In this document: positions 60,767-61,911 of the stretch, one piece after another
Layout of the letters: each line of letters begins with the position of its first letter
How positions within the stretch are numbered: the first letter of the stretch is position 1
Notes under the pieces: model-generated
Told to the model about the DNA's origin: nothing
What the model saw: the letters and a program-made list of their open reading frames with translations, nothing else
The model's database searches: none
Program-made: the position numbers and the translations under genes
Source: Candidatus Poribacteria bacterium
Lineage (GTDB): Bacteria; Poribacteria; WGA-4E; WGA-3G
Direction: 5' to 3'
Assembly (NCBI GenBank): GCA_965242965.1
Contig: OZ251518.1
Span: 3,104,001-3,168,000 of the forward strand
Length of the DNA stretch: 64,000 nucleotides

Positions 60767-61141
60767 CTACTCATCATTCTGTGCCGCGGCGTTGCGATTC
60801 TCGGCGGGAGTGGGTTCGGTGAAGTCCTCGCCGGCGGCTTCCGCAGCCTTCCGACGATTATACCATTCCACCCATTCACGATTCGCAAGTTCCCAGCCGA
60901 TGGCACCGCCGAGTTTCCTACTGAGTTCTCTGCTGCGTGCTTCGCCGAGCTCCCTAGCAAGTTCTCTGTCGATTGCTTCCCCGATTGCCTCGCCGAGTTC
61001 CCTGCCGCGTGCCTCGCCGAGTTCCGTAGCGAGTTTCCAGCTGATAGCCTCGCCGATAGTCTCGCCGCGGCCATCGCGGCGTGCTTCGCGCCTCCGCCTC
61101 CGCTCCTTAATCTGTTCCATCACCAAATCATACAAAATCAT
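60767..61141 (-). CDS. Stand-alone C-terminal module of the 2-TM family (124 aa, expanded GEAIGRELA repeats)
   Basis: MILYDLVMEQIKERR...WVEWYNRRKAAEAAGEDFTEPTP; ATGA-coupled to the upstream ORF. Confidence 0.75.
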   Translation of the reverse strand: MILYDLVMEQIKERRRRREARRDGRGETIGEAISWKLATELGEARGRELGEAIGEAIDRELARELGEARSRELSRKLGGAIGWELANREWVEWYNRRKAAEAAGEDFTEPTPAENRNAAAQNDE

Positions 61142-61341
61142 TTGTCGTCCGGTGCGCCGTTGCGCTTCTCAGCGGGATTGGGTTCGGTGAAGTCCTCGCC
61201 GGCGGCTTCCGCAGCCTTCCGACGAGCCTCCCATTCCACCCACTTGCGTCGCTCAAGTTTTATGCCGATTTCCTTGCCGCGTTCCTCGCGCTTTCGCTGC
61301 CGCTCCTCAATCTGTTCCTTGACCAAACCATACAAAATCAT
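61138..61341 (-). CDS. Stand-alone C-terminal module of the 2-TM family (67 aa)
   Basis: MILYGLVKEQIEERQ...WVEWEARRKAAEAAGEDFTEPNP; ATGA-coupled. Confidence 0.75.
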   Translation of the reverse strand: MILYGLVKEQIEERQRKREERGKEIGIKLERRKWVEWEARRKAAEAAGEDFTEPNPAEKRNGAPDDK

Positions 61342-61832
61342 TTGTCGTCCAGCGCGCCGTTGCGCTTCTCGACGGGGTTGGGTTCGGTGAAGCGTTTGCC
61401 GGCGGCTTCCGCAGCCTTCCGACGAGCATCCCACTCAAGCCACTCGCGGCTCTCACGTTCCTTGCCGCGTGCTTCGCCGATAGCCTCGCCGAGTTTCCTG
61501 CCACGTGCCTCGCCGATAGCCTCGCGCTTCTGCTGCCGCTCCTCAATCCGTTCCTTAACCAAACCATACAAAATCATCGGAACCTCCACTCCTAGAAATA
61601 GAACCAGCACGGGAATCGCCGCCGCTGTCGGAATCGCCGTCGTGATGTCAACGACAATTGCCCGCACCGTCTCATAGCCAGTCCAGCCTTTGGACAGGTG
61701 ATAACTAATCGCCATGCCACCATAAACCGAGATGAGGATGCAAAACATGAATAGCGCGATACCTACCCATGCCCGCCGGACACCTAAAAACTGCACCCAA
61801 TCTCTATCTTTGTGCTGCTCCTCTTTTTTCAT
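61338..61832 (-). CDS. 2-TM family protein with internal RBS/ATG (61577)
   Basis: VQFLGVRRAW head, two TMs, GGAGG-5-ATG MILYGLVKE. Own promoter TTGACA-17-TAAAAT at 61872-61900. Confidence 0.78.
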   Translation of the reverse strand: MKKEEQHKDRDWVQFLGVRRAWVGIALFMFCILISVYGGMAISYHLSKGWTGYETVRAIVVDITTAIPTAAAIPVLVLFLGVEVPMILYGLVKERIEERQQKREAIGEARGRKLGEAIGEARGKERESREWLEWDARRKAAEAAGKRFTEPNPVEKRNGALDDK

Positions 61833-61911
61833 ACACAGCTTCCTTCGCCTCGCGCATGGAGGCATAATTGCATTTTAACACAAATCGACAGAGATGTCAA
61901 GGACGGCGCGG

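Follow-up and report, generated by a model that had tools for sequence, protein, structure and literature searches.

A family of poribacterial membrane proteins with stand-alone copies of their C-terminal module, as found in a cassette between ftsA and ftsZ

In a stretch of 64,000 nucleotides from the genome of a Candidatus Poribacteria bacterium (GenBank assembly GCA_965242965.1, contig OZ251518.1, positions 3,104,001 to 3,168,000), which is referred to as the window, we have characterized a cassette of three open reading frames (ORFs) located between the genes ftsA and ftsZ. In the ORF listing, all three are intact, are arranged head to tail on the minus strand and encode proteins of 164, 67 and 124 residues, the first being a full-length protein and the other two stand-alone versions of its C-terminal module, hereafter called the tail. 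Both tail-only ORFs open at the residue matching an internal methionine of the long ORF (Met86, in the sequence MILY...), and overlaps of the sequence ATGA, which contain the stop of one frame and the start of the next, join the ORFs at positions 61338-61341 and 61138-61141 (Table 1).

Organization and insertion of the cassette

A preliminary description of this DNA, made from the sequence alone, had noted a full-length gene followed by two ATGA-coupled copies of its own C-terminal module in the interval between ftsA and ftsZ. This layout is borne out by the ORF coordinates and translations, as are the described tail lengths of 79, 67 and 124 residues and the private promoter TTGACA-17-TAAAAT at 61900-61872. 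The promoter also bears on the start of the full-length gene, since the alternative ATG at 61865 sits only a few bases past the -10 box, which makes the shorter reading from the ATG at 61832 likelier. Upstream regions of paralogs and orthologs contain the same element, with TTGACA present in 6 of 6 aligned sequences and a -10 box of the form TA..(A/C)T in 5 of 6. As the paralogous loci have this promoter in common, the spreading unit consists of promoter and gene. Within the cassette, a search for DNA repeats combined with alignment reveals a 200-nt unit that recurs across the copies with identities of 82% and 61%, and a family of repeats with a period of 12 nt inside two of the three tails, those of the long gene and of the 124-residue ORF. 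The main difference among the tails lies in the number of four-residue repeats, which, counted from the translations, is about 5 in the long gene, 2 in the 67-residue and 16 in the 124-residue protein.

Table 1. Features of the cassette and of its immediate surroundings (positions in the window)
Feature	Position	Strand	Remarks
ftsA (context)	61912-63156	-	Pfam FtsA and SHS2_FTSA
Cassette promoter TTGACA-17-TAAAAT	61872..61900	-	11/12 consensus matches, TG before -10; ftsA stop directly ahead
Full-length gene, 164 residues	61338..61832	-	Longer reading 61338-61865, 175 residues from alternative ATG 61865
Shine-Dalgarno-like GGAGTGGAGG, internal	61583..61592	-	5 nt upstream of conserved internal ATG
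Internal 'tail gene' within the full-length ORF, 79 residues from Met86 (MILYGLVKER...)	61338..61577	-	ATG 61577-61575
Tail-only ORF 1, 67 residues from MILYGLVKEQ, ~2 GX3 repeats	61138..61341	-	HMM match from model position 83
Tail-only ORF 2, 124 residues from MILYDLVMEQ, ~16 small-residue-X3 repeats	60767..61141	-	HMM match from model position 83
ftsZ promoter TTGACT-17-TATTAT	60723..60751	-	Just behind cassette; promoter motif match
REP-like palindrome GAGACC-N4-GGTCTC, three 26-nt copies	60533..60625		Outside cassette; DNA repeat search
ftsZ (context)	59072-60460	-	Pfam Tubulin and FtsZ_C
HMM, hidden Markov model; REP, repetitive extragenic palindrome.

The junctions between the three ORFs are found in independent data. 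They are bridged by metagenome contigs of four public runs, each belonging to a different study and one of these runs perhaps being the source sample, that at 61338-61341 in X1 record 6, X2 record 13, X6 record 24 and X7 record 30 and that at 61138-61141 in X1 record 5. The Logan contigs are short in this region and none covers the whole array in a single record. Together with arrays at the same place in two other genomes of the genus (termed G001 and G002, with G000 denoting the genome studied here), these contigs show that the array is not a one-off assembly artefact, a possibility that had been raised in the preliminary description. G001, the metagenome-assembled genome 'Candidatus Poribacteria bacterium AGPOR5', contains the full gene and a single tail ORF of 91 residues with the same ..DK-stop/ATG junction as G000. 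G002 contains two tail ORFs created via another kind of junction, where eight residues from the second membrane helix are retained and the frames likewise overlap by 4 nt.

In a comparison of the 1.5 kb downstream of ftsA by tblastn and with the family HMM, the cassette was present in all 3 members of the genus and in 0 of 27 other relatives, 19 of which carry ftsZ within the same distance. The ftsA-ftsZ spacers of cassette-free relatives contain a conserved CTTGACTTAAC...TATAAT box and the same box is found here right behind the cassette (60751-60723), which shows that the latter was inserted, in this genus only, between the stop of ftsA and the pre-existing ftsZ promoter. Hence, the earlier notion that the cassette splits the ftsA-ftsZ pair holds in so far as the two genes are separated here, an insertion limited to this genus, but the conserved ftsZ promoter downstream has been left intact. 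We see no functional tie to cell division, and the location appears incidental because of this restriction to the genus and because the neighbours of other family loci are unrelated housekeeping genes. We thus caution against reading meaning into the position. A second insertion into a conserved gene pair is found at G000:C1:5333356-5334216 (L014 / L086), where a full gene and a 69-residue tail ORF lie between a gene for a ccmA-like ABC (ATP-binding cassette) ATPase and ccmB.

Anatomy of the family, internal start signal and tail-only copies

The cassette is one locus of a larger family, which in G000 comprises 20 full-length genes at 16 loci, four of them within the window. Homologs were identified in two databases (287 proteins in one and 1198 representative clusters in the other), all of them without name or Pfam domain, and the libraries and source records that were searched, a survey that did not extend to papers on Poribacteria, hold no name for the family. 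Its distribution is patchy, with 0 matches in 9 of 31 related genomes and up to 33-34 in others. The plan common to 13 aligned paralogs consists of a basic N-terminus with the motif RVxxLGxRxxW, two hydrophobic helices, a nearly invariant methionine, a helix built from small-residue-X3 repeats and the end motif WxxWNxRRxxAxxxGxPFxEPPP, which in the full-length protein of the cassette reads W..W..RR..A...G..F.EP.P. Over 63 representatives, the W, RR, A, G, F, E and P of this motif are nearly invariant and far better kept than the rest of the protein. A confident AlphaFold2 model of the full-length protein, with a predicted local distance difference test (pLDDT) value of 92.3, shows a helix at residues 20-47, a short loop and a single helix at residues 53-143, and the charge distribution predicts a protein of the inner membrane whose two ends face the cytoplasm.

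Neither sequence nor structure searches connect these proteins to a characterized fold. Pfam, NCBIfam, PHROGs and PADLOC gave nothing above noise for the cassette proteins or their paralogs; in PHROGs, the cassette protein matched 0 families, single paralogs showed weak matches to models of holins (E 0.01) and spanins (E 0.0044), and no phage genes were found around the family loci examined. A Foldseek search of the PDB with the full-length model returned no match at E<=0.001 and the tail alone no match either (one row, E 9.8), and in a PDB sequence search the tail profile found 0 matches and the full profile 5 at E>=0.034. The best score of a wide search with VIA-align (Z 7.2, on MscS-type membrane hairpins) is inside the stated noise for helical models. 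The ESM Atlas returned only clusters named 'hypothetical protein', mostly from Chloroflexota, with scores of 0.94 and a recognition value below the mark of the tool. A complex prediction of the full-length with the 67-residue protein scored 0.15.

A further regularity in the family concerns the nucleotides preceding the conserved internal methionine. In 19 of the 19 G000 paralogs with an ATG at this place (the twentieth encodes a cysteine in the same column), the sequence GGAG is found at positions -18 to -5, the 3' end of the 16S rRNA being the usual GGATCACCT. By comparison, GGAG precedes 543 of 16,348 internal in-frame ATGs in 2213 long ORFs (3.3%) and occurs in 7.3% of 14-nt windows inside the same family genes. 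Upon resampling of synonymous codons by genome usage, the motif appeared on average in 3.9 genes and never in more than 12, and 0 of 20,000 trials reached 19. In other genomes, 28 of 37 distinct genes have it ahead of the conserved ATG. The methionine itself is kept in 50 of 63 representatives, whereas the commonest residue of any adjoining column reaches 26 of 63 at most. Since GGAG is encoded in varied amino-acid contexts and in a shifting codon register (TTG GAG, ACA GGA GCT, GGA GGC), its conservation argues for selection on nucleotides. The presence of GGAG ahead of the conserved ATG in all 19 paralogs, set against a background of 3.3%, suggests that a soluble tail is probably also made from inside each full-length gene.

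Separate genes for the tail are widespread. With the family HMM, we find 9 tail-only copies behind full-length genes at 8 of the 16 G000 loci, 4 of which start exactly at the conserved methionine and the others 6-18 residues upstream of it. The start signals consist of GGAG and ATG in 5 cases, GAGG in 1, an ATGA overlap in the 2 copies of this cassette and a start 13 nt past the preceding stop in 1; the copy at locus J is a weak match. Across the related genomes, 10 contain tail-only matches with a start at model position 51 or beyond, at least 38 in total and at least 22 of them at positions 68-85; these were counted among the matches listed, with 57 further rows lying outside the list, and do not include the second halves of full-length frames. 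Among distant representatives, many proteins of 65-130 residues open at the same methionine, and others consist of tandem tails alone. The junctions differ among loci and genomes and the tail copies have therefore arisen independently. Junctions other than the tail start also occur, as seen in L097 (G004:C1:4577500-4581200), where three full-length members alternate with two copies that are cut within the first membrane helix. Within the window, four tandem family members of 224-247 residues at 51365-55319 on the minus strand each contain the W..W..RR..PF.EP motif twice per ORF, and their array is interrupted by an ORF with a DUF4258 domain (53485-53766) and a small Cys-rich ORF (53172-53495), which together look like a toxin-antitoxin pair.

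We next turn to selection, where the ratio of nonsynonymous to synonymous substitution rates (dN/dS) of the small ORFs had been named in the preliminary description as a check on their status. Between species, this ratio amounts to 0.09-0.45 at dS values of 0.47-1.07, the ORFs being intact; it is 0.09-0.31 for the 67-residue ORF against the small ORFs of G001 and G002, 0.21-0.45 for the 124-residue ORF and 0.24-0.29 for the full-length gene against its orthologs. Combined with the recurrence of tail-only copies at half of the loci and in other genomes, and with the conserved internal GGAG and ATG, these values lend good comparative support to the proposal that the C-terminal module acts as an independent protein. 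Copies within one array show dN/dS values of 0.36-0.71 at dS 0.12-0.43, and in G001 the small ORF differs from the full-length gene of the same genome with a dS of 0.22 and from the small ORFs of G000 with values of 0.47-0.66. As copies of the same genome are closer than orthologous copies, gene conversion among copies is likely, and it probably contributes to their similarity. In a substitution-only simulation at 0.17-0.34 substitutions per site, the probability of encountering no stop was 0.09-0.24 for the 67-residue and 0.03-0.15 for the 124-residue ORF, and the openness of the small ORFs is thus only modestly unlikely to be due to chance.

The described data allow us to weigh a first alternative, in which the 12-nt repeats and the high similarity of the copies dispose the family to partial tandem duplication and the tail-only ORFs are its debris, untranslated by-products whose frames gene conversion from a selected parent has temporarily preserved. 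The repeat-rich DNA, the junctions of other types in L097, the ratios within arrays, the closeness of copies from the same genome and the modest weight of openness alone would all fit such an origin, and so would the existence of broken copies, which include a frameshift at a locus termed F and at least three tail-only matches with a stop among the matches listed. In contrast, the junctions are concentrated at the internal Shine-Dalgarno sequence and ATG or a short way upstream instead of being distributed at random, every copy retains either a Shine-Dalgarno sequence or a coupled start, and the ratios between species point to constraint. Moreover, tail-only proteins from the same methionine are found in distant representatives of the family, and the first junction (..DK-stop/ATG) is common to G000 and G001 and intact in both, for which reasons we regard a mere by-product as unlikely.

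A proposed mode of action

A potential role of the tail is suggested by its occurrence on other proteins. In P0282, a protein with a PF04754 domain at residues 28-229 (Pfam E 4.8e-22), residues 293-368 match the tail profile over both the repeats and the end motif (hhalign 99.4%, E 6.5e-22), and at least six PF04754 clusters end in the family tail with its repeats and the sequence W..W..RR..A...G.PF..PPP, covering at least 94% of it. Matches to the GX3 repeat part alone are mostly proteins with PF12784 or PF04754, some of which are named 'Rpn family recombination-promoting nuclease/putative transposase'. A third context is provided by P0325, where a tail of 79% identity is attached to an unrelated front end. 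The latter has 18 paralogs in G000, with lengths of 300-420 residues and 33-45% identity to the front end of P0325, whose places on G000:C1 include 120339-121343, 3435469-3436524 and 3436693-3437697. Their own tails consist of four-residue repeats (GIEQ, GREE, AQEQ) followed by a conserved helical end, a C-terminal domain differing from that of the family. We suspect the P0325-type domain to be nuclease-like; it has no match in Pfam or NCBIfam, and as no library recognises it we refrain from calling it Rpn.

The paper on the Rpn proteins describes a small C-terminal protein, translated from an internal start, as antitoxin of the long nuclease; this small protein forms dimers through a helix in which four-residue repeats, present in varying number, determine specificity (10.1101/2023.05.02.539157). 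By analogy, we tentatively interpret the cassette as an Rpn-like gene-within-gene module, belonging to a poribacterial family with multiple copies whose members have a two-helix membrane domain where Rpn has the nuclease, a reading to which we assign slightly less than an even chance. In this module, the second membrane helix would run on as a long cytoplasmic helix with GX3 repeats and the conserved end motif, and each full-length gene would, by use of its internal ribosome-binding site and ATG, also yield the soluble tail alone. The two downstream ORFs are duplicated copies of the inner gene with other repeat numbers, which would be translated by coupling. As in Rpn_L/Rpn_S, the soluble tails might pair along the repeat helix with the tail of the membrane-anchored form and hold its N-terminal membrane domain inactive, and thus be antitoxin-like, with the repeat number deciding which tail pairs with which paralog. 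The idea of a repertoire of variant antitoxins, contained in the preliminary description, hence gains a concrete precedent and may apply, whereas we have found no evidence for the sensors that it had offered as an alternative.

Several observations weigh against this interpretation. Among 55 flanking ORFs of 8 loci, there is neither a conserved neighbour nor a consistently nearby defence or partner gene, searches with PADLOC and PHROGs remained without match, and nothing points to a toxic membrane domain. PF04754, PF12784 and PF14261 were not found in the G000 genome, and of these absences that of PF14261 counts here. In its predicted model, the 67-residue protein forms one helix at residues 2-47 followed by a disordered end (pLDDT 73.7) and not a three-helix bundle as solved by crystallography for RpnA_S (10.1101/2023.05.02.539157). 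Half of the G000 loci contain no separate tail ORF and some loci consist of full-length arrays only. In G002, the third copy stops early, and at locus F (window 34293-34879, minus strand; G000:C1:3138293-3138879) the tail copy is split over two frames inside the repeats, which reflects a pseudogene with a frameshift or else an error of sequencing within the repeat. Since the paralogs are kin, the statistics of 19 out of 19 genes overstate their independence, and since gene conversion from a selected parent could hold copies open, the argument from selection is weakened. A search of sequencing runs found no RNA run containing the stretch. Finally, the repeat numbers of the adjacent small ORFs differ from that of the full-length gene, which would make them non-cognate for their own neighbour under the Rpn rule. 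These mismatched ORFs may be partners of other paralogs or be in the course of decaying.

The signs of an internal start are likewise compatible with an assembly without toxicity, where anchored and soluble tails would build one structure, with the repeats setting the length of a cytoplasmic stalk and the end motif docking a partner. The fact that this motif is far better conserved than the rest of the protein suggests a shared binding partner and not just self-pairing, and the lack of a defence-gene neighbourhood would be as expected. A precedent exists in the potassium channel MthK, where soluble RCK domains produced from an internal Met107 co-assemble with the membrane form (PMC9440719). 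Opposed to this, the patchy and copy-number-variable distribution and the strong private promoters resemble accessory or selfish modules, the same tail is found on Rpn nucleases, which are toxins, and no partner has been identified, so we consider this assembly improbable as well. In the antigenic variation of pilE/pilS, an expression locus is accompanied by 5'-truncated silent copies. A comparable function of the tail-only copies as silent donors, which by gene conversion would change the repeat number or sequence of the expressed tail, could draw on the order of a full gene followed by 5'-truncated copies, on repeat numbers that differ between parent and copies and on the signs of concerted evolution within arrays, but it is very unlikely given that the copies have start codons with a retained Shine-Dalgarno sequence or ATGA coupling that donors do not need, that the tail is predicted to be cytoplasmic with no apparent external selector for variation, and that there are only 1-2 donors per locus. 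The earlier suggestion of swappable tails for recombination is not needed to account for ORFs with start codons and translational coupling and is not supported, although some gene conversion is likely.

The surroundings of the cassette contain additional features. The REP-like palindrome located ahead of ftsZ belongs to a set of 1310 chromosomal copies of GAGACC-N3-5-GGTCTC, where about 1 would be expected by chance, whose depth in metagenome contigs is 100-600x that of the flanks. A tie between these elements and the family was rejected, as they are near 4 of 17 loci compared to a random mean of 4.7. A 368-residue ORF at 43499-44605 (minus strand), whose product contains a Y1 transposase domain of the IS200-like type (PF01797, E 2.2e-11), adjoins the family member at 42226-42978 and may be responsible for mobilizing the REP-like elements. 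Directly downstream of ftsZ, where the DNA is rich in repeats, two tandem ORFs at 57860-58273 and 58339-58752 (minus strand) encode retropepsin-like aspartyl proteases of 137 residues (PF13650), and a further ORF at 27794-30826 (minus strand) encodes a protein of 1010 residues that combines the domains of an adenylate/guanylate cyclase and of an NB-ARC/AAA ATPase with tetratricopeptide repeats.

Comparison with known systems

The small-residue repeats recall those of Yae1 and Lto1 (deca-GX3; Yae1_N, PF09811) and the glycine repeats of FliH, which equally place a glycine or small residue at every fourth position of a helix. In the Yae1-Lto1 complex, such repeats mediate pairing and are needed for complex formation (PMC4523923). 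The contexts are unrelated and in the family the repeat number ranges from about 2 to more than 20. Yae1_N had no match on the cassette proteins at E<=0.1 in Pfam, and on family relatives hmmscan scores were 16-34.5 bits compared to a cut-off of 27.5, with P0187 (34.5) clearly above, one protein at the cut-off and most below. The likeness is a shared sequence device and not a shown homology. The copies of pilE/pilS resemble ours in following a full gene and lacking its 5' part, but in the family they are few, carry start signals and encode a tail that is predicted to be cytoplasmic. In MthK, as hypothesised for the family, one gene provides a membrane protein and its own cytoplasmic domain in soluble form, although the domains are unrelated and MthK has neither repeats nor downstream stand-alone copies.

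The resemblance to the anti-phage toxin-antitoxin systems Rpn_L/Rpn_S (YhgA-like; Zhong et al.) is more extensive. The family shows sequence signs of a C-terminal small protein with its own internal start, its repeats have a period of 4 residues or 12 nt and begin about 21 residues after the methionine (8-20 in Rpn), their number varies widely among paralogs, many of which exist per genome, and independently arisen stand-alone copies of the small gene are found directly downstream. For Rpn, the paper likewise reports second small-gene copies downstream of rpnE (ypaA) and rpnC that arose independently, and DUF4351 in some of the small proteins (10.1101/2023.05.02.539157). As to differences, the cassette proteins match neither PF04754, PF12784 nor TIGR01784 in Pfam and NCBIfam, nor DUF4351, their N-terminus is a two-helix membrane hairpin and not a PD-(D/E)XK nuclease, and up to two downstream copies are present, which are joined by ATGA.

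If the Rpn-like interpretation applied, the family could be part of a second, membrane-acting branch of the Rpn-type 'antitoxin inside toxin' design. In this scenario, which we regard as possible yet doubtful, a portable repeat-helix tail would have been combined with three or more front ends that are not related to each other (the nuclease of PF04754, the P0325-type domain and the membrane hairpin), and about 20 paralogs per genome together with orphan tails would form a network matched by repeat length. Repeat length would then decide which soluble tail restrains which membrane effector, predicting a match of this length between tail and target. As tail copies arise in genes without a nuclease domain, such duplications would not need a nuclease domain within the duplicated gene, although the 18 P0325-type paralogs of the same genome may act in trans. 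Genes within genes are rarely annotated and, to our knowledge, Rpn is so far the only characterized antitoxin encoded inside its toxin. With a Shine-Dalgarno sequence conserved at the level of nucleotides, an internal methionine, variable repeats and the repeated birth of tail genes, the family provides a clean comparative signature of the Rpn design on a quite different front end, which suggests that the repeat-helix tail is a general and transferable control module.

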